The notes below the pieces were generated by a model. It was given only the letters and a program-made list of their open reading frames with translations, searched no databases and had not been told where the DNA came from. 64,000 nt of DNA from Squalus acanthias (Eukaryota): assembly GCA_030390025.1 (NCBI GenBank), contig CM059431.1:135968001-136032000 (forward strand), read 5' to 3'. The translations under genes were made by a program, and so were the position numbers. Positions 4,307 to 46,170 of the stretch are shown piece by piece; the stretch's first letter is position 1, and each line of letters starts with the position of its first letter.

Positions 4307-5397
4307 CCTATCTAATATGGTACTGCTTCCGCCTCTAGTACTACTTTCTTCTCTGGTACTATCCAACACACTCACTCTTTGATGCACCTTATTCCTTTTT
4401 TCTACTCCTATATGCTGGTGCCCATTCCCCTGCCAAGCTAGTTTAAACCCTCCCCAACAGCACCAGCAAACCTCCCTGCGAGAATATTGGTCCCGGCTCT
4501 GTTGAGGTGTAACCCGTCCTGCTTGTACAGGTCCCACCTTCCCCAGAAACGATCCCAATGCCTCAGGAATCTAAATCCCTCCCTCCTGCACCATCTCTCT
4601 AGCCATGCAGTCATCTGTTCTATCCTCCTATTCCTGTACTCACTAGCATGTGGTAACGGGAATAATCCAGAGATTACTACCTTTGAGGTCCTGCTTTTTC
4701 ATCTCTTTTCTAGCTCCCTATAGTCTGCCTGCAGGACCTCATCCCTCTTGCTGCCTATGTTGTTGGTACCGATATGGACAACGACCTCTGACTGTTCACC
4801 CTGCCCCCTCAGAGTGTCCTGCAGTTGCTCAGTGCCATTCTTGACCCTGGCACCAGGGAGGCAACATACCATCCTGGAGTCACGCCTGCGTCCACAGAAA
4901 CGCCTATCTGTTCCCCCAACTAATGAATCCCCTATCACTATTGCTCTTCCACTCTTCTTCCTCCCCCCCCTGTGCAGCATGGTGCCGTGGCCTTGGCTCT
5001 GGCTGCTCTCCCCAGAGGAACCATCACCCCCACCAGTTTCCAGAACTGTGAACCAGGTTAGCGAGCAAGATGCACTCTGGGGATTCCTGCCCTACCTGCC
5101 TCGTCCTCCTTCTCTGTCTGGTGGTTACCCATTCTCTCTCTGCCTGTACATTCTCAGGCTGCGAGATAACCACTTCTAGAAACGTGCTTTCCAAGTAGTT
5201 CTCAGCCTTGCGGATGCACTGTAGTGACTCCAGCTGCCGCTCACGCTCCGAAACCCAGAGCTCGAGTTGCTGCAGTTGGCGACTATATGATTCTACTCAA
5301 TTAATTCTTTTGCCATGTCCTCTGCCTCTACATGAAGATTTCCCTTTGGGTCCTTAATAGGACCAACTTTTTCCCTAGCTAATCTCTACACTTTATT

Positions 5398-7012
5398 GCC
5401 TCGAAATTCAATATCGCCGAAAATAGGCATTGAGATCATGATGCAACAGCAACCCGCAACTTCAGGGAGCACGTAAAATTCATACTGCTTGTTACTTTAC
5501 ATGATTGCAGTGTTCAGCCGAGCGTTGTTGCATGGCTGAATTCTCAGTGGGTAGCCCAAGTTTGTGCGAGGCTAGCTCCAATTAAAGCTAGCCTGCACTA
5601 CTTAAAGGCAGTCTGCACCTCATAAAGGGCAGGTGCCTTCTGCCTGCAACAGGTACTGCAACTGTTTGTGAAGGTAAGTTTTCTAAACAAAAAGACTGAG
5701 TATTTACTCAACAGGCCAGAGAAAGGGCTCCAAGGATATCGGATGCAGCACTGGAGGCCTTGGTCCAAGAGTTCAATTCCAGGAGAGAGGTCCTCTTTCC
5801 ACAGGGTCCAGGAGGCCCTCCAGGCAACAGGCAAGACTGCAGTGGGAGCAGATAGTCCATGTGGTCAATGCCAGCAGTATAGCCACGAGGACCTGGACTC
5901 AGTACAGGAAGAAGTTTAATGACCTCACATGAGTGGTCAAGGTCAGTGAATTCACCTTCAAATGCCATATCCCACCAACTGCACCACTAGCCTAAGCCAT
6001 TGCTCAATTCACCACACCCCCATCACTCACCTACCAACAATCTCTATCAATCATGACTCATACCTCAAATTCATAGCTTCACCTCACCCTCAAACACTGC
6101 TACAAGCCTCACACCCACATCTCACAGATTGTACACACTGCCAGCTATTCAACCATGACAGGCACATCACACAAACAAATTGCACCGCACTCACTGACAC
6201 ACTTCGCTCTCTCTTGCAGGACAAGTTGTCGCATAACTGAAGGCAGCAGGAGTTAACTGGAGGGGAAGAGGCATGACTGCATGTCCTTATACTGATGGAG
6301 GAGACGGTGGTCACCATCATTGGAGCGGTTATCACTGAGGCCAGTGGTGGGGCTGAAACCATCAAAGATGACAATATCTAATCCTCATTCTCACATTGCA
6401 CTTCCCCTTCATCCAACAATTTCTTCTGAGTTACAAGCTGCAGATGGTGTAAGCATGCATCTCTTGCTTTTCCCCCCTCCTCTCACCAAAACCCTACCCT
6501 TGTGCCTTTCTCCTTTCAGATACCCAAGAACTGCAACTTGGCTAGGCAGTAGTGGAAGAGAAAGTGGTGGAAGAGCAGAAAGACCGTGATGAAGAAGAAA
6601 CACCATCATTCGATTTCACACTCGCAGCCACCATCTCAGATATTGACACTGTGCGTAATTTAGAGGACAGCTTAGAGGCAGTATCGGCACGCGGTGAAAC
6701 ACCGGGCATGAGTGGTCTGCAGCTAGGGCAAGGGACAAGGGTAGCCCAGGTGCCAGCTTGCCGGAGGATGAGGTCACACAAGAGTGCTGCTGTAGAGGAC
6801 TCAGATTAGCACTTTGATGGTGCGGGCTAGAGAAGAAAGCTAATAGGTATGCACAATGAAATGTTTGGTGCATTGGCAGGCCTGCCAGAAAGCCTGTGTG
6901 CAATGTCAAGGAGCATGGAGGGGTCCAGCACCAACATGGCACAGAGCTTTGCGCACAGCTTGAAGCCCATCCTTTCCAGCATGGAAGTGGTGGCCAACTC
7001 CATTAGCACACT
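5398..7012 (+). mobile_element. PIF/Harbinger DNA transposon relic with an intron-containing Myb/SANT-like accessory gene (pseudogenised)
   Basis: Manual translation QARERAPRISDAALEALVQE...WEQIVHVVNASSIATRTWTQYRKKFNDLT*VVK (~5711-5941), then donor GTCAGT; acceptor ttgcag before DKLSHN*RQQELTGG (~6220); later MFGALAGLPESLCAMSRSMEGSS, homologous to 23336-23536. Confidence 0.75.
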
Positions 7013-7888
7013 TATAAGAACGTAAGAAATAGAAGCAGGAGTAGGCCATTCGGGCCCTCGAGCCTGCTCCGCCATTTAATAAGATCATGACTGATCTTCT
7101 ACCTCAACTCCACTTTCCTGCACTATCCCCATATCCCTTGATTCCCTTAATATCCAAAAATCTATCAATCTCTGTCTTGAATATACTCAACGACTGAGCC
7201 TCCACAGCCCTCTGGGGTAGAGAATTCCAAAGATTCACCACCCTCTGAGTGAAGAAATTTCTCATCTCAGTCCTAAATGGCCGACCCCTTATTCTGAGAC
7301 TGTGACCCCTGACTCCAGAGTCCCCAGCCAGGGGAAACATCCTCCCTGCATCTACCCTGTCAAACCCTGTAAGAATTTTGTATGTTTCAATGAGATCACC
7401 TCTCATTCTTCTAAACTCCAGAGATTATAGGCCTAGTCTACTCAATCTGTCCTCATAGGACAGTCCCCCCATCCCAGGAATCAGTCTGGTGAACCTTTGT
7501 TGCACTATCTCTATGGCAAGTATATCCTTCCTTAGGTAAGGAGACCAAAACAGTACACAATACTCCAGGTGTGGTCTCACCAGGGCCCTATATAATTGCA
7601 TTAAGACGTCTTTACTCTTATACTTAAATCCACTTGTAATAAAGGCGAACATACCATTTGCTTTCTTAATTGCTTGGTGTGCTGCACATTAACGTTCAGT
7701 GATTCGTGTACAAGGACACCCAGGTCCCTCTGAACACCAACATTTCCCAATCTCTCATCATTTAAAAAATACTCTGCTTTTCTATTTTTCCTACCAAAGT
7801 GGGTAACTTCACATTTCTCCACATTATATTCCATCTGCCACGTTCTTGCCCACTCGCTTAGCCTGTCTATATTCCTTTGGAGCCTATT
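7013..7888 (-). mobile_element. CR1 LINE 3' part (element A); its upstream continuation lies inverted at 9699-9982
   Basis: ORFs 7601-7834, 7425-7652 and 7104-7406 (RPHLEYCV, RGDLIE, FFTQRVV); CR1 3' UTR and tail at ~7014-7100. Confidence 0.9.
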
Positions 7889-9698
7889 AGAGTCATAGAG
7901 TTATACAGCACAGAAAGAGGCCCTTCGGCCCATCGTGTCCGCGCCGGCCATCAAGCCCTGTCTATTTTAATCCCATTTTCCAGCACTTCGGTCCGTAGCC
8001 TTGTATGCTATGGCATTTCAAGTGCTCATCTAAATGCTTCTTGAATGTTGTGAGGGTTCCTGCCTCTACCACCCTTTCAGGACAGTGAGTTCCAGATTCC
8101 AACCACCCTCTGGGTGAAACAGTTTTTCCTCAAATCCCCTCTAAACCTCCTGCCCCTTACCTTGAAACTATGCCCCCTGGACATTGACCCCTCTACTAAG
8201 GGGAAAAGTTCCTTTCTATCTACCCTATCTATACCCCTCATAATTTTGTACACCTCAATCAGGTCTCCCCTAAGCCTTCTCTGCTCTAAGGAAAACAACC
8301 CCAGCCTGTCCAGTCTCTCTTCATAGCTGAAGGGCTCCAGCCCAGGTAACATCCTGGTGAATCTCCTCTGCACCCTCTCCAATGCAATCACATCCTTCCT
8401 ATAGTGTGGCGACAAGAACTGCACACAGTATTCCAGCTGTGGTCTAACTAGCGTTTTGTACAGCTCCATCATAACCTCCCTGCTCTTATATTCTATACCT
8501 CGGCTAATGAAGGCAAGTATCCCATATGCCTTTTTAACCACCTTATCTACCTGTCCTGCTGCCTTCAGGGATCTATGTACATGTACACCAAGGTCCCCCT
8601 GATCCTCTGTCCTCCCTAGGATCCTACCATTCATTGTGTATTCCCTTGCCTTGTAAGTCCTCCCAAAATGCATCACCTCACACTTTTCAGGGTTAAATTC
8701 CATTTGCCACTGTTCTGTCCATCTGACCAACCCATCTATATCGTCCTGTAGCCTGAGGCTTCCCTCCTCGCTATTTACCACTCCACCAATTTTCGTGTCA
8801 TCTGCATACTTACTAATCATACCTCCTACATTCATATCTAAATCATTAATGTACACTACAAACAGCAAAGGACCCAGCACCGATCCCTGCGGTACACCAC
8901 TGGACACAGGCTTCCAGTCACAAAAACAACCTTCGACCATCACCCTCTGCCTCCTGCCACTAAGCCAATTTTGGATCCAATGTGCCAAATTGTCCTGGAT
9001 CCCATGGGCTTTTACCTTCTTGACCAGTCTCCCATGCGGGACTTTGTCAAAAGCCTTACTGAAGTCCATGTAGATTACATCAACTGCACTACCCTCATCC
9101 ACACACCTAGTCACCCCCTCGAAAAATTCAATCAAATTGGTCAGACATGATCTCCCCCTGACAAAGCCATGCTGACTATCCTTGATTAATCCTTGCCTCT
9201 CCAAGTGGAAACTAATTCTGTCCCTCAGAATGTTTTCCAATAATTTCCCTACCACTGATGTTAGGCTCACTGGCCTGTAATTCCCTGGTTTATCCCTATT
9301 ACCCTTCTTGAATAATGGTACTACGTTAGTTGTCCTCCACTCCTCTGGCACCTCCCCTGTGGCCAGAGGTGTGCTGAAAATTTGTGTCAGAGCCCCTGCA
9401 ATCTCCTCCTTGCCTCACACAGCAGCCTGGGATACATCTCGTCTGGGCCTGGGGATTTATCCACTTTTAAGCCCGCTAAAACCGCTAGTACCTCCTCCCT
9501 CTCAATACTAATTTGTTCAAGTATATCACAATCCCCCTACCTGATTTCTATGCATACATCGTCCTTCTCCATAGTGAACACAGATGCAAAATATTCATTT
9601 AAAACCTCACCCACATCTTCTGGCTCTACACACAGATTGCCACTTTGGTCCCTAATGGGCCCTACTCTTTCCCTGGTTATCCTCTTGCCCTTAATATA
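7889..9698 (-). mobile_element. CR1 LINE 3' half (family B), RT domain
   Basis: ORF 8077-9351 with full RT motifs (QHGF, DFSKAFD, PQGSVLGP, YADD); near-identical inverted partner of 14137-15893 plus 16670-16707. Confidence 0.93.
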
Positions 9699-9982: not shown

Positions 9983-11450
9983 ATTCTGAAGGGGGAGGGC
10001 GAACAGTCAGAGGTCGTGGTTCACATTGGTACCAACGACATGGGTAGAAAGAGGGATGAGGTCCTGCAACAAGAATTTAGGGAGTTAGGTAGCAGATTAA
10101 AAAGCAGGACCTCAAAGGTTGTAATCTCTGGATTACTCCCGGTGCCACGTGCCAGTGAGTATAGGAATAGAAGGATAGAGCAGATGAATGCGTGGCTAAA
10201 GAGTTGGTGCAGGAGGGAGGGCTTCAGTTTCCTGGATCACTGGGTCTGCTTCTGGGGAAGGTGGGACCTGTACAAGTCGGACGGGTTGCACCTGAACCGG
10301 AACAGGACCAACATCCTTGCGGGGAGGTTTGCTAGTACTGTTGGGGGGGGGGGGGGGGGGGGGGGGGGTTTAAACTAACTTGGCAGGGGGATGGGATACG
10401 GAGTGGAGCTATCGTAGGAGGTGATGCACAGCCAAATATAGAGGAAAAAACAAGTCAGCCTGGAAGGCAGAGCAAATATGTAATGGCACAAAGGAGTATG
10501 ACAAGGCTGGATGGCATTTATTTTAATGCAAGGAGTCTTGCGAGTAAGGCAGATGAATTGAAGGTGTTGATGAACACATGGGAGTATGATATTGTTGCTA
10601 TCACAGAGACATGGTTGAGGGAGGGGCAGGACTGGCAGCTCAATATTCCGGGGTATAGAATCTTCAGGCGAGACAGAGGGGGGTGTAAAAGAGGAGGGGG
10701 TGTCGCAATATTAATCAAGGAGTCAATTACTGCTGTAAGGAGGGATGATATCTTAGCAGGTTCCTCTAATGAGGCCATATGGGTAGAACTTAAAATCAAA
10801 AAGGGGGCAAGCACTTTGCTGGGAGTGTACTATAGGCCCCCAAACAGTCAGAGGGAGATAGAGGAACAGATATGTAGGCAAATCTCAGAGAAGTGTAGAA
10901 ATAATAGGGTAATAATAGTAGGGGATTTCAACTTCCCAATATTAACTGGGATAGTCAGAGTGTGAAAGGATCAGAGAGTGCAGAATTCTTAAAGTGCATC
11001 CAGGAGAGCTTTTTGAGCCAGCATGTAGAAAGTCCTACAAGAGAGGGGGCAGGTACTGGACCTAATTCTAGGGAATGTAGCCAGGCAAGTGGTAGAAGTG
11101 TTAGTAGGAGAGCATTTTGGTGAGAGTGACCATAATTCGGTGAGATTTAAGGTAGATATGGAAAAGGACAAAAATGGACCGGAAATAAAGGTTCTAAATT
11201 GGGGGAAGGCCGATTTTAATATGATAAGGCAGGATCTGGCCAAAGTGGACTGGGATCAGCTACTTGTAGGAAAATTCAAATCAAAGTAGTGGGAGTCTTT
11301 CAGAAAGGAAATGGAGAGAGTACAACGCCAACATGTTCCCGTAAAGGTCAAGGGTGGGACCAACAAGCCCAGGTAACCCTGGATGTCAAGGGATATATGA
11401 GAATGGATTAGGAAAAAAGGGAGGCTTTTGGCAGATACAAAGGACTAAAA

Positions 11451-19980: not shown

Positions 19981-19982
19981 AT

Positions 19983-25943: not shown

Positions 25944-25989
25944 AATGTAAAAAGTGAATATTACAAATTTTTTTCTTCTCGTTTTCTAG

Positions 25990-26698
25990 GAACTTCTATT
26001 ACATAACAATGCTGAGAGACCCAGTATCCCGTTTTTTGAGTGAATGGAGACATGTTCAGAGAGGGGCCACGTGGAAGGCTTCACTACACATGTGTGATGG
26101 CAGAACCCCGACGCAAGATGAGCTTCCGACCTGCTACATGGGTAATGATTGGTCAGGCTGCACTCTGCAGGAGTTCATGAATTGTCCTTACAATCTGGCC
26201 AACAACCGACAGGTCCGCATGCTAGCAGACCTCAGTCTCGTGGGATGCTACAATTTATCCATCATGACGGAAAACAAGAGAAATGAGATTCTTTTGCACA
26301 GTGCAAAAAATAACCTTAAAGACATGGCCTTTTTTGGACTCACAGAATTCCAGAGGAAGACTCAATATCTATTTGAAAGAACCTTTCATTTGAAGTTCAT
26401 CTCACCTTTCACCCAGTTCAATAGCACACGAGCTGCCAGTGTGGAGCTGGGCGAACAGACTAGGAAACACATTGAGGAATTGAATTTTTTAGATGTGCAG
26501 CTCTATGACTATGCAAAAGATCTTTTTCTGCAGCGCTTTCAGTACATGAGACAGAAGGAGCACCGGGCAGATAAGAGAAAGCGTCAAGAAGAACGAAGAC
26601 AGCATCATGAGAAACAGGCAACACACTACAGGTCACAAACAAAGGACACAGAGAGTGTGACCACAGACGATTACACAAGTCAAGTGGAAAGATGGTGA
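25990..26698 (+). CDS. HS6ST3: Heparan-sulfate 6-O-sulfotransferase 3, terminal coding exon (first exon lies upstream, outside the window)
   Basis: Polypyrimidine tract and AG at 25988-25989, then NFYYITMLRDPVSRFLSEWRHVQRGATWK...NLANNRQVRMLADLSLVGCYN...DYTSQVERW*; YITML, DELPTCY, SAKNNLK, FISPFTQFN, LNFLD and SQV-RW resemble HS6ST3 more than HS6ST1/2 (recalled comparison). Confidence 0.9.
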
Positions 26699-28500
26699 TT
26701 GTTTCTTTTCTGTTAGCTTTAATTCATACAGTTTGGACAATTAAGATTATTGAATTCCAACAACAAAAAAGTCACATTTAGGACTCATGGGATAGGACAG
26801 TATTTCACATGCAACATGTAAACCTGCCTTGAAATATCTTTTCATTTGGATCTTTAACCCCCTTCCAATGATGTGCATTTCTGCTATTCATCCTTGTTTT
26901 GTGTTTGCATTCTGGTAGATTTAAAGTCAAATAGAAAAGAAACATTAAGTTGCCTTAGGTATATCTTACTGAAATCAGTGAACCAAAAGGAACGCTGATA
27001 CGAATGCTCTCTGGTAAAATGTAGAGCTGTGAAAGAAACCTAGAGGCAATACCTTGCTTCTGTCAATCAGTGGAGTGTGTTTAGTAAGCTGTTATAGTAG
27101 CCCATTAGGGCATTTGACTATCATTTGCTTGTGAGCTTGTCACTGACTATAATCATGCTTCCAAAATCATGCTGAAGGGTTTTATAAAATAAAATAAAGA
27201 GCTCCCTTCAGGTTTTTATTTGATTTAAACTTGTCTAAACGCATCCAATCCATTGCCAGAACTAGGCAGTAATAAGTAATGTGTAAGTGATTTCATATAT
27301 GTATACAATTTACATACAAGACATACTGCAATCCCATTTCATTTAACTAACACTCAATAAACTTGAGATTTGATATAAATTTGCCTATCATTGGTTTTAA
27401 CTCAAAAGAAAACAGGTAGTAAAAAATATTATCAAGCTTGGTTTCCAAATTATGAAACAAATGTAGCTTTTTCCACTTAATAGGCTGAGATACTCTGTCA
27501 GACAGCCACATTGCAGGTCTTTAATGACACATGTAATATAGATATGCAGTAAAATATACCAATACATTATATCAAATCCGGCAGTAGCAGTAACATCACA
27601 GAATGATGTCACAGCACACTTAAACTCATTTTGAGCTTTTCCTCTCAGTACACTACGCACTGAATCAAAATTTTTGATCTAAAAACCTGATTAACTTTTG
27701 ATCTAAAAACCTGATTAATCAAAAGATTTTTCTAACTCAAAAACTGGTTAAGCTACATAGTAGTTTATTTGGAAACTTTAATATATAGACTCCATTTCTC
27801 TATTTTCAAACTAGATTACTTTTCTCAGTTTCTCTTGGACTTAAGCCTGTGCTTTGTTTGGGCCTGTTAGCTCATTTCGAGAGCTGGCTCACCCCACACT
27901 CCTAAAATCCCAGTCATACTTTAGAAGGTACAAAGATCATTCAACACTCCAAGAATTAAAAGATTACGTAATAATGGTCTAATTATAAACAGAATACTGG
28001 CCAAGTTCAGATAAGAATTATTTGACCATGTAAATCACCTTGGAAAGTTGACTCAATATTGTAATTTTCCATTGAGCAAAAACAAGTGCTATTTCATGGT
28101 ATTAGGCCATAATTTGCATCAATAAAACACACAAGATTAAATTATTAGCATAGCTGATTCCCCATTGATTGTTACAGCAGAATATTGGTCACAGTCGGTT
28201 TAGAACCAAAAAATGTGAATTCATTACTCTTCCTGCAACATGATAGAGATTGCAGGCCCTACAGCTTCTTCTGCTGACATTATGGTTTGAATAAAAATTG
28301 TGAATCTTACGCAAAAGGAAAAACTTAATAATGTACAGACAACTGAGTGAGATAGGTTGACTGCTAATATAAGGTTTGCAAAGGCTCTGCAAGAAGTCAT
28401 ACATGGTACAACACTTGTGCGCGTTTATATTTTTCAACTTGCAGAACAAAACTAGTTTTAAAACTTACTATCCGACTGAAGGTTTGTTTATTTCTATTCT
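26699..28500 (+). other. Probable HS6ST3 3' UTR (end not determined)
   Basis: AT-rich, TE-free sequence after the stop, with several AATAAA hexamers (~27193, ~27356, ~28120, ~28290). Confidence 0.55.
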
Positions 28501-28588
28501 TGATGTGGAGATGCCGGTGTTGGACTGGGGTGGACAAATGTGAGAAGTCGCACAACACCAGGTTATAGTCCAACAGCTTTATTTGAAA

Positions 28589-28625
28589 TCACAAGCTTTC
28601 GGAGCGCTGCTCCTTCGTCAGGTGA
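28589..28625 (-). ncRNA. Minimal type I hammerhead ribozyme motif in the Penelope 3' pLTR
   Basis: Minus strand: tcac-CTGACGA-a-ggagc agc gctcc-GAAA-gctt-gtga. Confidence 0.75.
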
Positions 28626-31568
28626 AGTGAAGAGATGCATATAGGCACAGCATATATAGTCAGAGAACACTGCCAGATGATTACAGTTAATCTTTCCAAC
28701 TGCCCTTTATCACACCTCGGCAGAGAGATAATCATGGCAATCAAAGGTGTGGATGGTGTCCAAACAGGTCAGTCAGGAAAACATTACACAAAAGACAATG
28801 TGGCAGATGCTGGGGTCCGTATGGAAAACAAAAAACTTTTTTTGCTGGAAATCACAGCAGGTCCGGCCGCATCTGTGTAGAGAGAACAAGCCAACGACGA
28901 CTCGAGTCTGGATGACTCTACGTCAGGTGGGGTTACATGTAGCGTGACATGAACCCAAGATCCCGGTTGAGGCCGTCCTCATGGGTGCGGAACTTGGCTA
29001 TCAGTTTCTGCTCGACGATTTTGCGTTGTCGTGTGTCTCGAAGGCCGCCTTGGAGAATGCTTACCCGAAGATCGGAGGCTGAATGTCCTTGACTGCTGAA
29101 GTGTTCCCCGACTGGGAGGGAACACTCCTGCCTGGCGATTGTTGCGCGGTGTCCGTTCATACGTTGTCGTGGTGTCTGCATGGTCTCACCGATGTACCAT
29201 GCTCCGGGGCATCCTTTCCTGCAACGTATGAGGTAGACAACGTTGGCCGAGTCACATGAGTATGTACCATGTACCTGGTGGGTGGTGTCCTCACGTGTGA
29301 TGATGGTATCTGTGTTGATGATCTGGCATGTCTTGCAGAGGTTGCCGTGGCAGGGTTGTGTGGTGTCGTGGTCACTGTTCTCCTGAAAGCTGGGTAATTT
29401 GCTGCAAACGATGGTCTGTTTGAGGGTAGGCTGCTGTTTGAAGGCGAGTAGTGGGGGCGTGGGGATGGCCTTAGCGAGGTGTTCATCGTCATCGATGACA
29501 TGTTGAAGGCTGCGAAGAACATGGCGTAGTTTCTCCGCTCCGGGGAAGTACTGGACGACGTAGGGTACTCTGTTGGTTGTGTCCCGTGTTTGTCTTCTGA
29601 GGAGGTCTATGCGATTTTTCGCTGTGGCCCGTCGGAACTGTCGATCGACGAGTCGAGCATCATATGCCGTTCTTACGAGGGCGTCGTTCAGCGTCTGTAG
29701 GTGTCCATCGCGTTCCTCCTCGTCTGAGCAGATCCTGTGTATTCGCAGGGCTTGTCCATAGGGGATGGCTTCTTTAACGTGGTTAGGGTGGAAGCTGGAG
29801 AAGTGGAGCATCGTGAGGTTGTCCGTGGGCTTACGGTAGAGTGAAGTGCTGAGGTGTCCGTCTTTGATGGAGATTCGTGTGTCCAAGAATGAAACCGATT
29901 CTGAGGAGTAGTGCATGGTGAGTTTGATGGTGGGATGGAACTTGTTGATGTTATCGTGTAGTCTTTTCAGTGATTCTTCGCCGTGGGTCCATAGGAAGAA
30001 AATGTTGTCGATGTATCTGGTATATAGCATTGGTTGGAGGTCCTGTGCAGCGAAGAAGTCTTGCTCGAACTTGTGCATGAAGATGTTGGCGTATTGGGGT
30101 GCGAATTTGGTCCCCATGGCTGTTCCGTGTGTTTGGGTAAAAAACTGGTTGTCGAAGGTGAAGACATTGTGGTCAAGGATGAAGTGGATGAGTTGTAGGA
30201 TGGCATCTGGAGATTGGCTGTTGTTGGTGTTGAGTACTGAGGCTGTCGCAGCGATGCCATCATCGTGGGGCATACTGGTGTAGAGTGCCGAGATGTCCAT
30301 CGTGGCGAGGAGTGTTCCTGGTTCAACTGGTCCGTGGGTGCTGAGTTTCTGTAAGAAGTCTGTAGTGTCGCGACAGAAGCTGGGGGTTCCCTGTATGATG
30401 GGTTTCAGGATGCCCTCGACGTATCCAGAGAGGTTCTCACACAGGGTTCCGTTGCCTGATACGATAGGACGTCCGGGTGTGTTGGCTTTGTGTATCTTTG
30501 GGAGGCAGAAGTCTCCCACGTGGGATGGGAGCGCGTAGGATGCTTTGAAGGTCTGGATCGAAGGTCTTGATCAGTCTATTGAGTTGGCGGGTGTGTTCTT
30601 TGGTCGGATCTGCGGGTAACTGTCTGTAGTGTTCCTGGTTGTCCAGTTGTCGGTATGCTTCTTTGCAATAGTCCATTCTGTTCTGTATGACGATGGCTCC
30701 TCCTTTGTCCGCTGGTTTGATGACGATGTTGCAGTTGGTCTTGAGAGCGTGGATGGCGTTGCGTTGTGCTTGGGTGACATTCTGGACTGTCTTGTGAGTG
30801 CGGCTGATGAATCTGGCGTTGATGCATCTCCTGACAGCTTGAGCATACATGTCAAGCTTAGGGCAGCGACCCTCCGGAGGGGTCCAATTTGACTCTTTCT
30901 TCTTCAGTTGCTGCACTGCAGGTCCCTCTGTCAGCTGTTCCGGATCATTGATTGTCTCATTGGATTCGCTGCTGACATCTTGGGATTCGTGGAAGAATTC
31001 CCGGAGCCTCATTCTCCTGATGAATTCCTCTGTGTCTGCCGCGAGACCGATGGGGTCCATTTTGGTGGTGGGGCAGAAAATGAGCCCTCGGCTGAGAACT
31101 TCGATTTCGTCTGGTTGAAGGGTATGGTCGGACAAGTTGACGATGGACTTCCCTGTGGTTGCAACCGAGGTACCGGGGGAGGCTTGGTTGCTGCTGGTGG
31201 TGATGCCGAGTTTCTCAAGCTTCCTGTTCTTGGTGTGCATGTAGGCAGCGTAGTTCCGTTGCCTCATCTGTTTGGCGGTCATCCAGACTCGAGTCGTCGT
31301 TGGCTTGTTCTCTCTACACAGATGCGGCCGGACCTGCTGTGATTTCCAGCAAAAAAAGTTTTTTGTTTTCCATACAGACCCCAGCATCTGCCACATTGTC
31401 TTTGATGTAATGTTTTCCTGACTGACCTGTTTGGACACAACCCACACCTTTGATTGCCGTGATTATCTCTCTGCTGAGGTGTGATAAAGGGCAGTTGGAA
31501 AGATTAACTGTAATCATCTGGCAGTGTTCTCTGACTATATATGCTGTGCCTATATGCATCTCTTCACT

Positions 31569-31605
31569 TCACCTGATGAAGGAGCAGTGCTCCGAAAGCT
31601 TGTGA
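31569..31605 (+). ncRNA. Minimal type I hammerhead ribozyme motif in the inverted pLTR copy
   Basis: tcac-CTGATGA-a-ggagc agt gctcc-GAAA-gctt-gtga; stem I tcac/gtga, stem II ggagc/gctcc. Confidence 0.75.
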
Positions 31606-32809
31606 TTTCAAATAAAGCTGTTGGACTATAACCTGGTGTTGTGCGACTTCTCACATATTTCTATTCTGAGTACTGTATTCTTTGATTGCATGCTTTGGAA
31701 AATCACTACCATGTGATTCTACATTTAACGTATCACCAATGTAATGGATGATTTTCTTAGTGCCCTGTCAAGCAAAAAAAACATTTAAAGAAAAAAAGAA
31801 AAAGGTCATATGATTGGGCAGAATCAACATGAATTTATGAAAGCAAAATCATTTTTGACAAATCTGTTGCCGTTTTTTGAGGTTGTGACATCATGGCATT
31901 GACGGAGACATGCTTGAGGGGTGATGACACCATTTGCCATAAGGAAGCTTCCCCACCTGGCTATACTTTCCACCATATTCCATGCCCAAACCACTGTGGT
32001 GGTGGTGTAGCCCTTATATCTAAAATCACACTTTGTCTGTCTCCCTACTCCTCTGGCAACTTCTCCTCCTTTGAGCATCTTACCTTGTGCCACCCCTCAC
32101 GTCTCTCTTTTAAAATCCTTATTCTGTACTGTCCACCCAAATACCACACCAATTTACTCAATGAGATATCTTCTCTGCTTTCCTCCCTCTGCCCCAAGTG
32201 ACTTCTCATCCTCGGTGATTTCAACCTCCATCTCAACTCATCTTACTCCCTATCCTCCAAGTTCACTGTTCTCTTTTCCTCCTTAATCTCTCCTTTCACG
32301 TCAACTCCCCCACCCATATACACGGCCACCCCCTCAATCTTATCATCTCACGTGGCCTCGCTAGCCCCTCTGTAACCATCATAAGGCAATCCCTGACCAT
32401 TTCCTTATATCACTCTCTACCCATATTCCCCTTCCCCCTCCTAAACCCACTCCTTTTCGTATCCACCCCTGGAAAAAAAATCTCCTTCAAGTCCCTTACC
32501 ACTGCACTTTCTAATTCACAACTACCTAGCCTTTGGCATACAATTCTCCATAACATCTCTGCAGCTACTGACTTACTAAATCTCTCCACCACCTTTGATG
32601 CCTCTGTCCCCACTAAAATCATTGCACTCTCTCCCAAGTCGTTCCCCCTGGTATACCCCTCATCTCCACTCCCTTAGTCCAAGGGAGGCAGACTTGAACG
32701 TCTTTGGCGGACAACTGGTCTAATCAGCCATCACCAGATTTCGCTAGATCATATAAAGCACTACCGGGTTCTGCTCTCCATCACAAAAAACGCTCATTAT
32801 TCTAAGATA

Positions 32810-33008: not shown

Positions 33009-33274
33009 TGTAGAAGATCAACCAGGATGGCAAAAATAACTCCAGGCTTCTCTTCTCCACCACTAACCGTAATCTCAAACCAACCTCCCTTGCCTCCTCC
33101 TCCTCCATCATCTCCAACAATAAATGCGAGGAGCTCATGAACTTCTTTGTTAAAAAGACTGACAACATCCATTCAACTGCTTCTAATTTCAATTCCCTCC
33201 CTTCCCCTAGCCCACCGGATCTTTCTTCCTGTTCATTTTCCCCCTGCCCTAACCCTAAATTTGCATATTTCTCT

Positions 33275-36200
33275 CGGATGGTATGTTGCCTCCCGGGTGC
33301 CAGGGTCCGTGACGTCTCGGACCGTGTTTTCAGAATCCTCAAAGGGGAGGAGGAACAATCACAAGTCGTGGTACACATCGGTACCAACGACATAGGTAGG
33401 AGAAGGGACGGGGATTTAAAACAGGAATTTAGGGAGCTAGGTTGGAAGCTGAGAGCCAGTACAAACCATGTTGTAATTTCTGGTTTGTTGCCGGTGCCAC
33501 GTGCTAGCGAGTTGAGGAACAGGGAGAGAGTGCAGATAAACACGTGGCTGCAGGGATGGTGTAGCGGGGAGGGTTTCAGTTATGTGGATAATTGGAGCAC
33601 ATTCTGGGGAAGGTGGGACCTGTACAAACAGGACGGTTTGCACCTGAACCAGAGGGGCACCAATATCCTGGGAGGGAAATTTGCTACAGCTCTTCGGGGG
33701 GGTTTAAACTAATTTGTCAGGGGGATGGGAAAAAGGGCTGTAGTCCACGAGCCAGTGGTGAGTGTAGGGAGGTACTGAGGAGGGTATCAAGGTCGCAGGA
33801 ATGTACCGGCAGACAGGAAGATGGCTTGAAGTGTGTCTACTTCAATGCAAGGAGCATCCGGAATAAGGTAGGAGAACTTGGAGCGTGGATTGGTACTTGG
33901 GACTACGATGTGGTGGCCATTACGGAGACATGGTTAGAACAGGGACAGGAATGGTTGTTGGAAGTTCCGGGGTATAGATGTTTCAGTAAGAGTAGGGAAG
34001 TTGGTAAGAAAGGTGGAGGAGTAGCATTGTTAATCAAGGATAGTTTAACAGCGGCAGAAAGGCAGTTCGAGGGGGATCTGCCGTCTGAGGTAATATGGGC
34101 TGAAGTTAGAAATAGGAAAGGAGCGGTCACGTTGTTAGGAGTTTTCTACAGGCCCCCAAATAGTAATAGAGATGTGGAGGAAGAAATTGCAAAGCAGATT
34201 ATGAATAGGTGTGGAGGTCACAGAGTAGTTGTCATGGGTGACTTCAACTTTCCAAATATTGATTGGAACCTTTATAGGTCAAACAGTTCGGATGGGATAG
34301 TTTTTGCACAGTGTGTGCAGGAGGGTTTCCTGACACAATATGTGGATAGGCCGACAAGAGCTGGGGCCACGTTGGATTTGGTACTGGGTAATGAACCGGG
34401 CCAAGTGTTTGATTTGTATGTGGGAGAGCACTTTGGAGATAGTGACCACAATTCGGTAACTTTCACTATTGCAATGAAGAGGGATAGGGCCATACGGCAG
34501 GGCAGGGTTTATAATTGGGGGAGGGGTAATTATGATGCAATTAGGCAAGAATTAGGGAGTATAAGATGGGAACTGAAACTATCAGGGAAAGGCACAAACG
34601 AAAAGTGGAGCTTTTTCATGGAGCAATTACTGCGTGTCCTTGATAGGTATGTCCCTGTCAGGCAGGGAGGAAATGGCCGAGTGAGAGAACCATGGTTCAC
34701 AAAAGAGGTTGAATGTCTAGTCAAGAGGAAAAAGGAAGCGTATGTAAGGATGAGAAAACAAGGTTCAGTTGGGTCGATTGAGGGGTACAAGGTAGCAAGG
34801 AATGAGCTAAAAAAAGAGCTTAGGAGAGCTAGGAGGGGGCATGAGAAGTCCTTGGCGGGTCGGATCAAGAAAAACCCCAAGGCCTTTTACTCTTATGTGA
34901 GAAATAAAAGAATGACCAGGGTGAGGGTAGGGCCGGTCAAGGACAGTAGTGGGAACTTGTGCATGGAGTCAGAAGAGATAGGAGAGGTGATGAATGAATA
35001 CTTTTCGTCAGTGTTCACCGAGGAGAGGGGCCATGTTCTTGAGGATGAGAGTGTGATAAAGGTGGATAGGCTGGAGGTGGTAGATGTTCTGAGGGAAGAT
35101 GTTTTAGTAATTTTGAAGAACCTGAGGGTCGATAAGTCCCCTGGGCCAGATGGGATATATCCTAGGATTCTTTGGGAGGCAAGGGAGGAGATTGCAGAGC
35201 CTCTGGCTTTGATCTTTGGGTCCTCACTGTCCACGGGAATGGTGCCAGAGGACTGGAGAGTGGCGAATGTTGTTCCTCTCTTCAAGAAAGGAAATAGGAA
35301 TGACCCTGGTAATTATAGGCCGGTTAGTCTTACTTCGGTGGTTGGTAAGATAATGGAAAAGGTCCTGAGGGATAGGATTTATGACCATTTGGAAAGGGGC
35401 AACTTAATCAGGGATAGTCAACACGGATTCGTGAAGGGTAAGTCTTGCCTAACAAATTTGATTGAATTCTTTGAGGAGGTAACTAAGTGTGTGGATGAAG
35501 GTAGAGCGGTTGATGTCGTATACATGGATTTTAGTAAGGCGTTTGATAAGGTTCCCCATGGTCGGCTCATGAAGAAAGTAAGGAGTTGTGGGGTAGAGGG
35601 AAATTTGGCCGATTGGATAAGTAACTGGCTATCTCATAGAAGGCAGAGGGTGGTGGTGGATGGAACATTTTCGGACTGGAGACCAGTTACCAGCGGTGTG
35701 CCACAGGGGTCGGTGCTGGGTCCTCTGCTGTTTGTGATTTTTATCAATGACTTGGAGGAGGGGACTGAAGGGTGGATCAGTAAATTTGCTGATGACACCA
35801 AGATTGGTGGAGCAGTGGATGAGGTGGAGGGCTGTTGTAGGCTGCAAAGAGACATTGATAGGATGCAGAGCTGGGCCGAAAAATGGCAGATGGAATTTAA
35901 CCCTGATAAGTGCGAGGTGATTCATTTTGGTAGGGCAAATTTGAATAAGGATTACAGGGTCAACGGCAGGGTTCTGAGGAACGTGGAGGAACAGAGGGAT
36001 CTGGGGGTTCATATCCACAGATCTCTGAAGGTTGCCACTCAAGTGGATAGAGCAGTAAAGAAGGCCTATGGTGTGTTGGCGTTTATTAACAGAGGGTTTG
36101 AGTTTAAGAACCGTGAGGTTATGCTGCAACTGTACAGGACCTTGGTGAGACCACATTTGGAATATTGTGTGCAGTTCTGGTCACCTCACTATAGGAAGGA

Positions 36201-36694
36201 CGTGGAAGCATTGGAAAGAGTGCAAAGGAGATTTACCAGGATGCTGCCTGGTTTGGGGGGGAGGTCTTATGAGGAAAGATTGAGGGAGTTGGGGCTTTTC
36301 TCTTTAGAGCAGAGGAGGATGAGAGGCGACTTAATAGAGGTTTATAAGATGATGAGGGGGATAGATAGAGTGGATGTTCAGAGACTATTTCCTCGTGTGG
36401 AGGTAGCTGTTACAAGGGGGCATAACTATAAGGTGCATGGGGGGAGATATAGAAGGGATGTCCGAGGTAGATTCTTTACTCAGAGAGTGGTTGGGGTGTG
36501 GAATGGACTGCCTGCTGTGATAGTGGAGTCGGACACTTTAGGAACTTTCAAGCGGTTATTGGATAAGCACATGGAGCACACCAGAGTGATAGGGAGTGTG
36601 ATAGCTTGATCTTGGTCTCGGACAATGCTCGGCACAACATCGAGGGCCGAAGGGCCTGTACTGTGCTGTACTGTTCTATGTTCTATGTTCTATG
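33275..36694 (+). mobile_element. Young CR1 LINE: ORF1 C-terminal esterase (to 33712) plus intact ORF2
   Basis: Uninterrupted ORF2 to 36609; (TTCTATG)n tail; short TSD ttctct (33269-33274 / 36695-36700). Confidence 0.95.
33703..36609 (+). CDS. CR1 ORF2: APE endonuclease-reverse transcriptase, open; start mechanism unclear (no ATG until 34201)
   Basis: YFNARS, ITETW, GDFN, SDH, QHGF, DFSKAFD, PQGSVLGP and FADD in one frame with no stops. Confidence 0.85.
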   Translation, partial: FKLICQGDGKKGCSPRASGECREVLRRVSRSQECTGRQEDGLKCVYFNARSIRNKVGELGAWIGTWDYDVVAITETWLEQGQEWLLEVPGYRCFSKSREVGKKGGGVALLIKDSLTAAERQFEGDLPSEVIWAEVRNRKGAVTLLGVFYRPPNSNRDVEEEIAKQIMNRCGGHRVVVMGDFNFPNIDWNLYRSNSSDGIVFAQCVQEGFLTQYVDRPTRAGATLDLVLGNEPGQVFDLYVGEHFGDSDHNSVTFTIAMKRDRAIRQGRVYNWGRGNYDAIRQELGSIRWELKLSGKGTNEKWSFFMEQLLRVLDRYVPVRQGGNGRVREPWFTKEVECLVKRKKEAYVRMRKQGSVGSIEGYKVARNELKKELRRARRGHEKSLAGRIKKNPKAFYSYVRNKRMTRVRVGPVKDSSGNLCMESEEIGEVMNEYFSSVFTEERGHVLEDESVIKVDRLEVVDVLREDVLVILKNLRVDKSPGPDGIYPRILWEAREEIAEPLALIFGSSLSTGMVPEDWRVANVVPLFKKGNRNDPGNYRPVSLTSVVGKIMEKVLRDRIYDHLERGNLIRDSQHGFVKGKSCLTNLIEFFEEVTKCVDEGRAVDVVYMDFSKAFDKVPHGRLMKKVRSCGVEGNLADWISNWLSHRRQRVVVDGTFSDWRPVTSGVPQGSVLGPLLFVIFINDLEEGTEGWISKFADDTKIGGAVDEVEGCCRLQRDIDRMQSWAEKWQMEFNPDKCEVIHFGRANLNKDYRVNGRVLRNVEEQRDLGVHIHRSLKVATQVDRAVKKAYGVLAFINRGFEFKNREVMLQLYRTLVRPHLEYCVQFWSPHYRKDVEALERVQRRFTRMLPGLGGRSYEERLRELGLFSLEQRRMRGDLIEVYKMMRGIDRVDVQRLFPRVEVAVTRGHNYKVHGGRYRRDVRGRFFTQRVVGVWNGLPAVIVESDTLGTFKRLLDKHMEHTRVIGSVIA

Positions 36695-37024
36695 TTCTCT
36701 AATTTCTCTCTTGCCCTTTCAAAGCTCATCTTGTCAATGAGACCAACCTCCTGCTCTCTCGACCCTATTCCTACTAAATTACTGACAACCCAACTTTCCT
36801 TCCTGGCTCCCATGTTAGCAGATATTGTTAACGGTTCTCTCTCCTCCGGTATTGTCCCCCTTTCCTTCAAATCTGCAGTCATCACCCCTCTTCTCAAAAA
36901 AACAACCCTTGACCCCTCCATTCTTGCAAACTATCACCCCCATCTCCAACCTCCCTTTCCTCTCCAAAGTCCATGAACGTGTTATCACCTCCCAAATCCA
37001 TTCCCATCTTTCCCAGAACTCCTT

Positions 37025-41260: not shown

Positions 41261-41264
41261 GTAG

Positions 41265-41460: not shown

Positions 41461-41465
41461 GATCT

Positions 41466-42030
41466 GATAGTCATAGTCATAGAGTCATAACGGCACAGAA
41501 GGAGGCCATTCGGCCCATCGAGTCCATGCCGGCTCTCTGCAGAGCAATCCAGTCAGTCCCATTCCCCCGCTCTATCCCCGTAGCCCTGCAAGTTTATTTC
41601 CCTCAAGTGCCTATCCCCTTGAAAACATTGAGTTCCAGGTCCTCACCACTCGCTACGTAATAAAGTTTTTCCTCACATCCCCCCGTATCTTTTGACCAAA
41701 ACCTTAAATCTGTGTCCCCTAGTCCTTGTACCATCAACCAGTGAGAACAGCCTTTCCCCGTCTAGCCTATCCAAACCCGTCATAATCTTGTACACCGCTA
41801 TCAAATCACCTCTCAACCTCCTTTGCTCTAATGAAAACAAATCCAGCTTCTCCAACCTGTCCTTGTAGCTAAGATCCCCCATCCCCGGAACCATTCTGGT
41901 AAATCTCCTCTGCACCCTCTCAAGCGCCTTCACATCCTTCCTAAAGTGTGGTGACCAGAACTGGACACAATATTCCAGTTGTGGCCTAACCAGCACTTTA
42001 TAAAGGTTCAGCATAACTTCTCTACTTTTG
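41466..42030 (-). mobile_element. CR1 3' fragment
   Basis: KSREVMLNLYKVLVRPQLEYCVQFW...; (AGTCAT)n-type tail at ~41468-41490. Confidence 0.88.
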
Positions 42031-42219: not shown

Positions 42220-43012
42220 ATTAAATATTGGGAACTTCGTTCCCTAGCCACAAACTCCATCCTTCTCCTTAACATCTGTATGAGGCTGAATCACGCTGTT
42301 CGCAATTGGTGTCATATTTGACCCTGAAATGAGCTTCCGACCACATAGCCGCAGCATAACTAAGACCACCTATTTCCACCTCCGTAACATCGCCCGTCTC
42401 CGCCCTTGCCTCAGCACATCCACTGCTGAAACCCTCATTCATGCCTTTGTTACCTCTAGACTTGACTATTCCAACGCATTCCTGGCTGGCCTTCCACATT
42501 CTATTTAGGTAAACTTGAGGTCATCCAAAACTCGGCTGCCCGTGTCCTAACTCACACCAAGTCCCATTCACCCATCACCCCAGTGCTCGCTGACCTACAT
42601 TGTCTCCCAGTTAAGCCTCGATTTCAAAATTCACATCCTTGTTTTCAAATCCTTCCATGGCCTCGCCCCTCCCTATCTCTGTAATCTCCTTCAGCCCCAC
42701 AACCCCCAAGATATCTGCGCTCCTCTAATTCTGCCTTCTTGAGCATCCCTTATTATAATCGCTCCCGTGCCTTCTGTTGCCTAGGCCCTAAGCTCTGGAA
42801 TTCCCTCCCTAAACCTGTCCGCCTCGCTACCTCTCTTTCCTCCTTTAAGACGCTCCTTAAAACCTACCTCTTTAACCAAGCTTTTGGTCACCTGCCCTAA
42901 TTTCTCCTTATGTAGCTCAGTGTCAAATTTTTAGTCTTACTATACTCCTGTGAAGCGCCTTGGGACGTTTTACTACGTTAAAGGCGCTCTATAAATACAA
43001 GTTGTTGTTGTT
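42220..43012 (+). mobile_element. L2 LINE 3' end
   Basis: Encodes LIHAFVTSRLDYSNAFLAGL and PITPVLADLH; ends gtgaagcgccttgggacgttttactacgttaaaggcgctctataaatacaagttgttgttgtt. Confidence 0.88.
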
Positions 43013-43211
43013 AGGCAAGAAAGCAGGTGTGAGGTGTGAGTAGTTACGTGATTTTTTTTTTGCTATCAATTGTTCAACTGCCACACTGGCAAGGTTCAGC
43101 AAGGAAAAGCTTTAACATCAGGTTAAAAAGGCCCATAACGAGCTCTCAACTATTTAATTAGCTCACCCGCCTCTCCCGCTCGGGTCTCTGGTGCGTTCCC
43201 TAACAGCGATT

Positions 43212-43718
43212 GAAGTGATTCAGTCATTCATTCAGTGATTCTGTGATTAAGTTATTTATGGTTCAGTGATTCAGTCATACAAGTGATTCAGTGATTCAGA
43301 TTTTGATTCAGTCTGTGTTTCAATGATTCATTCATTCAGTGAATCATTCATTAATTCATTCTATGATTCATTCAGTGATTCAACTGTTCAGTGATTCAGT
43401 GAGTCTTTCATTCAGTCAGTGATGCACTAATTCAGTTAGTCAATGGTTCTGTGATTCAATGATTAATTAATTCATTAATTCAGTCAGTCATTCATTCAGT
43501 GATTCATTCAATCAGTGTTTCAATGATTCATCCGCTCAGTGACTCAATCATTCATACATTCAGTGATTCAGTATTTCAGTGATTCATTCAATCAGTGTTT
43601 CAGTGATTCATTCATTCAGTGATTCAATGGTTCAGTGAATCATACATTCATTCATTTATTCCGTGATTCATTCAGTGATGCAATGTTGCAGTAATTCAGT
43701 AAATCTTTCATTCATTCA
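43212..43718. repeat. Degenerate (ATTC)/(CAGTGATT) simple-sequence array
   Basis: Repeated tcagtgattcattca motifs. Confidence 0.85.
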
Positions 43719-46170
43719 TAGAATCATAGAATGGTTACTGCATAGAAGGAGGCCATTCGGCCTGTCGAGCCCGTGCCCGCTCTCTGCAAGAGCACTTCAG
43801 CTAGTCCCACTCCCCCGCCCTTTCCCCGTAGCCCGGCAATTTTTTTCCCTTCAAGTACTTATCCAATTCCCTTTTGAAAGCCACAATTGAATCTGCCTCC
43901 ACCACCCTTTCAGGCAGTGCATTCTAGATCCTAACCACTCGCTGCGTAAAAAAGTTTTTCCTCATGTCTCCTTTGGTTCTTTTGCCAATCACCTTAAGTC
44001 TGTGTCCTCTGGTTCTCGATACTTCCGCCAATGGGAACAGTTTCTTTCCATTTACTCTGTCTAGACCACTCATGATTTTGAACACCTCTATCAAATAGCC
44101 TCTCAATCTTCTCTGCTCTAAGGCAAACAACCCCAGTTTCTCTAGTCTATCCACGTAAATGAAGTCCCTCATCCCTGGAACCATTCTCGTAAATCTTTTC
44201 TGCACCCTCTCTAAGGCCTTCACATCCTTCCTAAAGTGCAGTGCCCCGAATTTGACGCAATACTTCAGTTGAGGCCGAAACAGCGTTTTATAAAGGTTCA
44301 ACATAACTTCCTTGCTTTTGTACTCTATGCCTCTATTTATGAAGCCCAGGATCCCGTATGCTTTTTAACTGTTTTCTCAACCTGTCCTGCCACCTTCAAC
44401 GATTTGTGCACATATACCCTCCAGGTCTCTCTCTTCATGCACCCCCTTTAGAATTGTACCCTTTAGTTTATATTTCCTCTCCTCATTCTTCTTACCAAAA
44501 TGTATCACTTCGCACTTTTCTGCATTAAATTTCATCTGCCACGTGTCCGCTCATTTCACCAGCCAGTCTATGTCTTCTTGAACTCTATCACTATCCTTCT
44601 CACTGTTCACTATACTTCCAAGTTTTGTGTCATCTGCAATATTGTGAAATTGTGCCCTGTACACCCAAGTCCAAGTCATTAATACATATCAAGAAAAGCA
44701 GTGGTCCTCGTCCCGACCCCTGGGGAACATCACTGTATACCTTCCTCCAGTCCGAAAAACAACCATTCACCACTACTCTCTGTTTGGTATCCATGCTGCC
44801 ACTATCCCTGATTATCGTTTCTAAATATTCTCCACTACCGAGGTTAAACTGACTGGCCTGTATTTGCTGGGTTTATCCTTACACCCTCTTTTGAACAAGG
44901 GTGTAACATTTGCAATTCTCCAGTCCTCTGGCATCACCCCTATATCTAACGAGGATTGGAAGATTATGGCCAGTACCTCCGCGATTTCCACCTTAAATTC
45001 CTTCAGCATCCTAGCATGCATCCCATCCAGTCCTAGTGACTTATCTACTTTAAGTACAGCCAACCTTTCTAGTACCTCCTCTTTATCAATTTTTATCCCA
45101 TCCAGTATCTCTACTAGCTCCTCTTTCAATATGACTTTGGCAGCATCTTCTTCCTTGGTGAAGACAGATGCAAAGTACTCATTTAGTACCTCAGCTATGC
45201 CCTCTGCCTCCATGTGTAGGTCTCCTTTTTGGTCCCTAATCAGCCCCACCCCTCCTCTTACTACCCGTTTACTATTTGTATACCTATAGAAGACTTTTGG
45301 ATTACTTTTATGTTAGCTGCCAATCTGTTCTCATACTCTCTCTTTGCCCCTCTTATTTTCTTTTTAACGTCCCGTCTGAACTTTCTATATTCAACCTGAT
45401 TCTCACTTGTATTCTCAACCTGACATCTGTCATACATACTTTTTTTCTGCTTCATCTTATCTCTTTTGTCATCCAGGGAGTTCTGACTTTGGTTGCCCTA
45501 CCTTTCCCCCTTGTGGGAATGTACGACTGTGCCCGAACCATCTCCTCTTTAAAGGCAGCCCATTGTTTGATTACAGTTTTGCCTGCCAATCTTTGATTCC
45601 AATTTACCCGGGCCAGATCCATTCTCAATCCACTGAAATTGGCCTTCCTCCAATTAAGTATTGTTAATCTAGGTTGCTCCCAGTCCTTTTCCATAGCTAA
45701 TCTAAACCGTATGATACTATGATCACTGTTCCCTAAATGTTCCCCTACTGACACTTGCTCCACTTGACCCACCTCATTTCCCAGAACCAGATCCAGCAAT
45801 GCCTGCTTCCTCATTGGGCTGGAAATGTACTGATCAAGAAAGTTCTCCTGAACACAATTCAGAAATTCTTCCCCCTCTCTGCCCTTTACTCTATTACTAT
45901 CCCAGTCTATATTAGTATGTGCACCATGTTTCTCCTTTCTAATGCTATATCCTGGTGCCCATCCCCCTGCCAAATTAGTTTAAACCCTTCCCAACAGCAC
46001 CAGCAAATACCCCCATGAGGATATTGGTCCTGGCTCTGTTGAGGTGCAACCTGTCTGTCCCAGGAATCTAAAGCCCTCCCTTCTGCACCATCTCTCCAGC
46101 CACGCATTCATCTGCTCTATCCTCCTATTTCTATACTCACTCGTGCGTGGCAATGGGAGTAATCCAGTCA
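43717..46170 (-). mobile_element. CR1 LINE with large internal deletions (ORF1 end to 3' tail)
   Basis: ORFs 45980-46171 (ORF1), 45452-45973, 44821-45249 and 43924-44304; tail catagaatcatagaa at 43717. Confidence 0.88.

Follow-up and report, generated by a model that had tools for sequence, protein, structure and literature searches.

How does a CR1 retrotransposon, a very common repeat in sharks and reptiles, translate its second open reading frame (ORF2), which encodes the copying enzyme, once the first (ORF1) has closed on its stop codon? The question is raised by a 64,000-nucleotide (nt) stretch of Squalus acanthias DNA (GenBank assembly GCA_030390025.1, contig CM059431.1, positions 135,968,001 to 136,032,000 of the forward strand), referred to here as the window, which is repeat-rich vertebrate DNA whose proteins have their closest named homologues in sharks and rays, and which contains four ORF1/ORF2 junctions of CR1 long interspersed nuclear elements (LINEs). 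Our answer, drawn from sequence comparison, is that the CR1 junction is probably a programmed -1 ribosomal frameshift site giving an ORF1–ORF2 fusion, as ORF1 ends on a classic slipping sequence which has been kept across vertebrates; the copying enzyme would then be made as a fused protein, like that of retroviruses. The features on which we draw are as follows, in window coordinates:

33275–33712, forward strand: 3′ part of a CR1 ORF1 (SGNH esterase) in a 5′-truncated element, ending Gly-Leu-Asn-stop (PF13472, E 2e-12; family profile against 4C1B, E 4e-40)
33703–33709, forward strand: slippery heptamer T TTA AAC, with the ORF1 stop TAA next at 33710–33712
33718–33729, forward strand: G-rich box CAG GGG GAT GGG, read in the -1 frame as Gln-Gly-Asp-Gly; its ATG is in the ORF1 frame and not in that of ORF2
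33703–36609, forward strand: ORF2 in the -1 frame, 968 amino acids from the heptamer, with a linker, an apurinic/apyrimidinic (APE) endonuclease and a reverse transcriptase (RT)
36673–36698, forward strand: CR1-type 3′ tail of GTTCTAT repeats without poly(A)
10369–10395, forward strand: junction 2, with heptamer, stop TAA and box; the -1 frame has no stop on its way into the endonuclease (ORF to 10965)
4421–4447, reverse strand: junction 3, with heptamer, stop TAG and a box with a GAAT variant; an ORF1 remnant lies upstream, to about 5280
4090–4319, no strand assigned: Penelope-derived palindrome inserted into junction 3's ORF2 linker, with a near-direct duplication on its flanks
3318–4046, reverse strand: ORF encoding the endonuclease at junction 3; it keeps the -1 register on the far side of the insertion, with one linker stop
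45958–45984, reverse strand: junction 4, with heptamer, stop TAA and box, belonging to one subfamily with junction 3; a deletion has removed the beginning of its endonuclease
4451–4507, reverse strand: candidate hairpin just 5′ of the heptamer, found also at about 45988–46044 and strong in this subfamily only
58750–61626, forward strand: a second 33703-family copy with 98.8% identity, cut short 3′ of the junction

The window elements are esterase-type CR1 LINEs, a placement which rests on the likeness of their junctions to CR1-labelled rows of a published compilation and on the esterase tree, both described below. CR1 elements are recognised by a short tandem-repeat 3′ tail without poly(A) and by 5′ truncation, and the element at 33275–36698 starts inside ORF1, ends in the GTTCTAT tail and has an unbroken ORF2. 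The latter contains the domains PF03372, PF14529 and PF00078, with an endonuclease that matches L1 endonuclease structures (E 9e-6), and the ORF1 SGNH esterase is identified by PF13472 as well as by its match to the ZfL2-1 esterase 4C1B. The second copy shows that the 33703 family is young, and single contigs from two other runs span a stretch of this family with 5 differences in 880 nt. It should be noted that contigs of four runs covering 33270–34150 had no variant at 33696–33747 and many at 33629–33695, which we do not count as evidence because those contigs also fail to show differences that the copies in the window are known to have.

A tblastn search found four esterase ORF1 ends in the window, and all four carry the heptamer T TTA AAC followed directly by TAA or TAG (4441–4447 and 45978–45984 on the reverse strand, 10369–10375 and 33703–33709 on the forward strand), so that each has an X XXY YYZ heptamer in the 0 frame with an adjacent stop codon. 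Exact TTTAAACTAR occurs in the window at these sites only, and allowing one mismatch gives 12 matches against 6.4 expected (a fifth match to GGGGRATGGG at 41567 is not a junction). The initial annotation had described a pattern of heptamer, TAR stop and G-rich box, and these elements are present at all four sites, but the pattern was one base too long: the shared form is GGT TTA AAC TAR YTTGK CAG GGG RAT GGG, in which the stop and CAG are separated by five bases and not six, which places CAG GGG RAT GGG in the -1 frame. It had also assigned the junctions to four divergent CR1 subfamilies, where we find three lineages, since the 4441 and 45978 copies belong to one subfamily (85% identity over 66 nt of ORF1 and 78% over 40 nt after the box, compared with 25–38% for the other five pairs). 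These lineages have 51–72% third-position identity over 120 codons and are therefore not saturated, and they share identical codons at 31 of 61 shared degenerate residues, so that three identical codons in a row would be met about one time in eight. The window by itself thus cannot show nucleotide-level constraint, and the case for it rests on outside sequences. We note that the copy at 10369 has a G run at 10342–10367, an in-frame expansion of 18 extra bases just before the heptamer through which ORF1 stays open as a Gly tract; transcriptional slippage was rejected as an explanation of the junction, as there is no long homopolymer at the site and this G run is specific to one copy.

The frame and the start of ORF2 bear on the question directly. 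At 33703, ORF2 is open in the -1 frame from the first T of the heptamer, beginning FKLICQGDG, with endonuclease sequence from residue 43 on and no Met before residue 167. The motifs YFNARS (46), ITETWL (73) and FYRPP (148) and the catalytic residues 48, 76 and 149 (the last two aligning to the L1 endonuclease motifs QETH and YAP) all precede this Met, and an AUG start would therefore drop three catalytic residues. All three linker ATGs are out of the ORF2 frame, including the first AUG after the ORF1 stop and the ATG of the box, and we rejected reinitiation at the box for this reason. The linker is free of stops in the -1 frame only in both of the readable copies (33703 and 10369), compared with 5–7% of shuffled linkers; direct reading of the 10369 copy bore out the earlier claim that its -1 frame runs open into the endonuclease, with stops in both other frames. 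The 4441 copy had been said to be in phase with its endonuclease ORF once the insertion is removed, and the arithmetic agrees (128+43 nt, a multiple of 3), with one stop in between. The 45978 copy has lost the endonuclease start and lies outside these counts. ORF2 frequently in the 0 or +1 frame would have spoken against slippage according to the initial annotation, and it was found in the -1 frame in 2/2 of the directly readable copies. The Penelope origin proposed for the 4441 insertion was upheld as well, as its 230 nt match at 89–92% the ends of a Penelope-like element at 28.5–31.7 kb. This element (28498–31656) has an RT ORF at 28933–30570 and an upstream ORF to 31462, and its ends are the source of the 4090–4319 palindrome.

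Conservation at the DNA level was assessed in the vertebrate CR1-group consensus rows of PMC13343379 (Supplementary Table 2; about 400 nt of each row searchable, matches judged by eye, and species taken from the row-name abbreviations). A search with TTTAAACT returned 44 matches, comprising 19 CR1-type ORF1 ends, two CR1 5′ untranslated regions (UTRs), one CR1 ORF2 and 22 matches in other families. The 19 ORF1 ends come from sharks, rays, a chimaera, bowfin, a teleost, coelacanth, bullfrog, bearded dragon, alligator and crocodile, and the window's junction context matches CR1-labelled rows of catshark, sawfish and chimaera. A stop codon adjoins the heptamer in 18/19 (TAG in 11, TAA in six, TGA in one, and one unclear). 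Twelve alternative spellings (other Leu or Asn codons and another first base, a set that is not exhaustive) gave 31 matches, none of them at an ORF1 end. When we used a motif-free anchor instead, the codons of the upstream G-L-H-L, there were 15 matches, ten of these in CR1 rows and nine with the end visible, and TTTAAAC was present at 9/9 while the anchor codons vary. For comparison, TTA accounts for 12/77 Leu codons and AAC for 15/40 Asn codons in window ORF2. Synonymous variation of the Leu-Asn codons across families, which the initial annotation had named as evidence against its proposal, was thus not seen in these published rows, where the codons are constant. Taken with the protein-end comparison below, the rows show conservation beyond amino-acid need, and by these comparisons the heptamer is fixed at the nucleotide level across jawed vertebrates (passages of PMC13343379 place the ray–teleost split at about 462 million years ago). 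The supplements of PMC7140322, PMC2734521 and PMC4120745 contained no junction sequence.

Protein-level relatives extend this comparison. Among 56 longer ORF1 homologues 44 end in Leu-Asn (LN) and one in IN. In three homologues annotated in run-on form, FKL stands at the place where the rest terminate, as TTT AAA CTR would read in the -1 frame; the painted-turtle protein P0086 has the run-on form too, reading SFKL at the ORF1 end, and the fused sea-turtle model P0221 has no Met between the end of ORF1 and the endonuclease. We then surveyed C-termini in the best 150 representatives of 50% clusters, keeping 106 with a readable end (the catalytic D-x-x-H motif 18–45 residues from it) and dropping 44. 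These distant ends are LN in 47, GN in 11, KN in one and otherwise in 47, and as protein sequences the forms x-L-N, Q-G-N and A-K-N would fit U UUA AAC, G GGA AAC and A AAA AAC, heptamers which passages of PMC5009743 list among the most shift-prone. As a heptamer X XXA AAC requires the preceding codon to end in X, the residue ahead of it is informative: before LN it has pyrimidine-only codons in 16 cases and purine-only codons in one (7:12 and 2:13 at positions -4 and -5), and before GN the counts are 0 and 10, nearly all of the latter Gln. Counting distinct five-residue ends in all 150 gives 11:2 for LN and 0:9 for GN (Fisher p 2e-4; one of the two is a truncated protein), and the comparison of position -3 with -4/-5 gives p 7e-4. 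In a quick esterase tree of 104 rows built with the last four residues left out, every LN, GN or KN end falls in one 74-row group, and the named LN-ending proteins include those of a frog, turtles, an anole and an eel. The other 30-row group has none, and it includes two named teleost proteins whose ends resemble that of the ZfL2-1 esterase, from which it follows that the esterase fold does not need such an end.

Two sets of database entries deserve mention. P0006 is a shark-type CR1 ORF1, 76% identical to that of the window, which was deposited under a bacterium's name on a 4-kb contig and is likely to be contamination. P0021, P0032, P0220, P0222, P0223 and P0103 are ray, turtle or frog host gene models which contain or end in a CR1 esterase ORF1, and reflect either an annotation artefact or exonisation.

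Under a frameshift, most ribosomes would terminate at the adjacent stop and free the ORF1 protein (ORF1p; about 300 amino acids in full-length relatives), while a small share would slip one base back as tRNA-Leu and tRNA-Asn re-pair on UUU AAA, yielding an ORF1p–endonuclease–RT fusion of roughly 1,270 amino acids. The rate of slippage would set a low ratio of enzyme to ORF1p, and the fusion would tether the enzyme to ORF1p multimers, as Gag-Pol does. The weakest step of this scheme is the pause, which probably comes from slow decoding of the adjacent stop, aided in many families by the G-rich box; the latter might act as a protein-binding site or a two-tier G-quadruplex, not as a classical stem-loop or pseudoknot, or it may instead only encode a Gly-rich linker.

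The observations that weigh against a frameshift begin with this stimulator. The box GGGGGATGGG is exact in only 6/19 consensus rows and absent from four, with a run of at least four G nearby in eight more and one row cut off, although its spacing is unchanged in alligator, chimaera, sawfish and one catshark row. No shared downstream fold emerged from 12 folds (z -1.4 to +1.7), no Rfam frameshift element matched at the junctions, and no stem-loop or pseudoknot was found 5–9 nt 3′ of the heptamer, pseudoknots not being modelled directly. The earlier proposal of a slippery site with a stimulator is therefore retained for the slippery site, with its fixed heptamer and ORF2 in the -1 frame, and not for a stem or pseudoknot. 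Nor did the suggested pairing of the box with an upstream ATCCT survive: five pairs are possible in 4/4 copies and there is one two-sided change, yet a similar helix is predicted in 1/4, and we rejected it further because the helix would span the slippery site and, by eye, the upstream word is missing from crocodilian rows that nevertheless have the box. The element at 33275–36750, a single 5′-truncated copy in which long-range partners were sought, contains no complement of the box. A two-tier G-quadruplex is predicted in 2/4 copies, a common motif which could start at 68 places in 3476 nt of the element; passages of PMC5009743 state that natural G-quadruplex frameshift stimulators were not known in 2016, which makes the G-rich box of interest in its own right. 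The hairpin 5′ of the heptamer is a candidate only, with 20 consensus pairs (three with two-sided change) and z of -2.5 and -3.2 in one subfamily (4451–4507 and 45988–46044), compared with -0.06 and +1.0 in the other copies and a background in which 4–16% of windows reach z -2. Separately, a 62-nt window of ORF1 at about 33335–33420 folds with z of about -6 (30 shuffles), as does a different window in the 4441 copy.

On the same side of the balance, in-frame ATGs are present at 10483 and 10498 in the 10369 copy and before the endonuclease in the 4441 copy, and as mammalian L1 ORF2 is translated without need for its AUG (passages of PMC5009743), an absent AUG alone is no proof of frameshifting. 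Frames are unreadable in the consensus rows, from which bases are missing and of which only 400 nt are shown. In the protein survey the p-values exaggerate how independent the ends are, since kin share them and most of the GN group belongs to a single clade, and 17 rows of the 74-row group end otherwise. DNA for the GN and KN group was not found in contig searches, and the LN/GN/KN covariation is thus read from protein; the viral and prokaryote contigs and plasmids searched held no junction DNA of vertebrate or GN type, and a weak search found no fused GN-type proteins.

The junction can also be read in other ways. Termination followed by reinitiation, or initiation at a non-AUG codon, has been documented for L1 and SART1 (passages of PMC2881922, PMC3894237 and PMC5009743), and in CR1 TTTAAAC and the stop would then be kept to signal termination or coupling; this route could use the in-frame CTG and TTG before the endonuclease at 33703 or the in-frame ATGs of the 10369 and 4441 copies, and it has a parallel in distant esterase LINEs with ORF2 in frame 0 behind one stop, where a Met lies in the first three codons in 4/8. 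We nevertheless consider it unlikely for CR1, because the first AUG past the stop is in the wrong frame and because it leaves unexplained both the fixed seven bases ahead of a variable stop, with a frame open from the heptamer, and the LN/GN/KN switching with a matching change in the preceding residue. A need of ORF1p for C-terminal Leu-Asn, with codons simply inherited by descent, would account for ends that are hydrophobic at the close of a C-terminal helix in many members, and half of the shared degenerate codons in the window are identical anyway (31/61). This we regard as very improbable: neither TTA nor AAC is the prevailing codon in ORF2, yet no other spelling was seen at ORF1 ends over some 462 million years, the end is absent from esterases of the ZfL2-1 type, a change from Leu to Gly is not conservative, and ORF2 of the 33703 family would be left without a start.

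It is harder still to credit a splice signal (an AACTAAC-like branch word, then CAG/G) or another RNA or DNA cis-element, with ORF2 translated from spliced RNA. The 10369 junction does resemble a branch word followed by CAG, and there are donor-like words in shark CR1 5′UTR rows (by eye), but no more than about 9 nt separate the branch word from the AG and there is no pyrimidine tract, crocodilian rows have no CAG, and contigs of the four runs contain one low-depth joint elsewhere and none at CAG (contigs cannot show absence). We note that GGTTTAAACTAR also occurs in the 5′UTR of the dogfish rows SquAca_CR1-3 and SquAca_CR1-18 (PMC13343379 supplement), upstream of ORF1 and near splice-like words.

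A metagenome scan gave 60 distant loci (22–39% identity), used here for contrast only; LN and slippery-site ends are absent from all of them. ORF2 lies in frame 0 behind a single stop in L005, L007, L012, L016, L020, L029, L038 and L045 (ORF1 stops at 1827, 894, 1589, 2165, 1112, 426, 743 and 415, respectively). L016, L038 and L045 read TGA CTA at this stop, which is a leaky context for readthrough, and L012, L016 and L020 have no Met for 25–41 codons, with a Met within three in the others. These esterase LINEs are possible readthrough or reinitiation lineages.

Elsewhere in the window, 25958–26698 (forward strand) is a host exon of a sulfotransferase (PF03567), apparently a last exon, which we take to be that of a heparan-sulfate 6-O-sulfotransferase. 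Very long low-complexity satellite of the ACTC/AGTC type occupies about 46400–46850, 47500–58750 and 61700–62600, and the young CR1 copy at 58750–61626 sits inserted in it.

The frameshift reading matters for several reasons. CR1 is described as the dominant retrotransposon in most vertebrate species (passages of PMC13343379), and how LINE ORF2 is translated has been called an open question (passages of PMC3894237), with L1 and SART1 the worked cases (passages of PMC2881922); a defined seven-base site makes it testable. If the reading is true, the active CR1 enzyme would include the zinc finger, coiled coil and esterase contributed by ORF1p; annotations in which ORF2 begins at its first Met would be too short (by 166 amino acids at 33703); and the junction should be taken into account when CR1 copies are scored as 'intact'. 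A wider proposal, on which we are evenly divided, is that canonical CR1 and the wider esterase-ORF1 clade would have made their fusion by a -1 shift for more than 450 million years, switching between U UUA AAC, G GGA AAC and A AAA AAC and using as stimulator not a stem-loop or pseudoknot but the adjacent stop together with the G-rich box, which might be a natural G-quadruplex or a signal bound by protein, all of it unreported. If so, a non-LTR element would have a strategy like that of Gag-Pol, and sister esterase LINEs would instead use readthrough of an in-frame stop or reinitiation.

Full-text literature searching, within the parts of the sources covered, found no report of a frameshift where CR1 ORF1 meets ORF2; Repbase Reports and the chicken and turtle CR1 papers of 1997 lie outside that scope and may note the -1 overlap or the heptamer. 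It is not mentioned in passages of PMC5009743, PMC11835228, PMC3894237, PMC2881922, PMC7140322 and PMC4120745, or in those of PMC13343379, PMC11303007, PMC3905857, PMC4255032, PMC2734521 and bioRxiv 2024.04.25.591049. The review PMC5009743 lists HeT-A, TART and L1, and the term 'CR1' was not found in the part searched. Esterase CR1 LINEs have been described (CR1 subgroup 7, ORF1 type IVB, in PMC4120745; Canonical-CR1 in PMC13343379) with the same esterase ORF1, APE-RT ORF2, microsatellite tail and 5′ truncation, and in the passages seen of both papers ORF2 is treated as separately started and no slippery site is mentioned. The CR1 junction is thus most likely a known kind of recoding in an element class for which we found no report.

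Among non-LTR (long terminal repeat) elements, Drosophila HeT-A is the one for which passages of PMC5009743 list frameshifting, but its gag shift lies inside a gag-like gene of an element without RT and does not join ORF1 to ORF2. Zebrafish ZfL2-1 (PDB 4C1B) has a homologous ORF1 esterase (E 4e-40), but is of the L2 type and its end is not LN, GN or KN. There is a mechanistic likeness to coronaviruses (U UUA AAC) and to the gag-pol of retroviruses and LTR elements, which share the heptamer class, an enzyme ORF in the -1 frame, and a protein upstream that forms ribonucleoprotein, followed by a polymerase downstream; the CR1 junction differs from these in that no pseudoknot or stem-loop was found 3′ of it, in its immediate 0-frame stop, and in its host, a non-LTR element. 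With L1 and SART1 it would share a bicistronic LINE RNA, dependence of ORF2 on ORF1 translation and a low ORF2 output. Those elements make a separate ORF2 protein without a slippery heptamer, by unconventional reinitiation in L1 and at a UAAUG stop-start in SART1, whereas CR1 ORF2 overlaps the end of ORF1 in the -1 frame, and the AUG closest to it lies in another frame.

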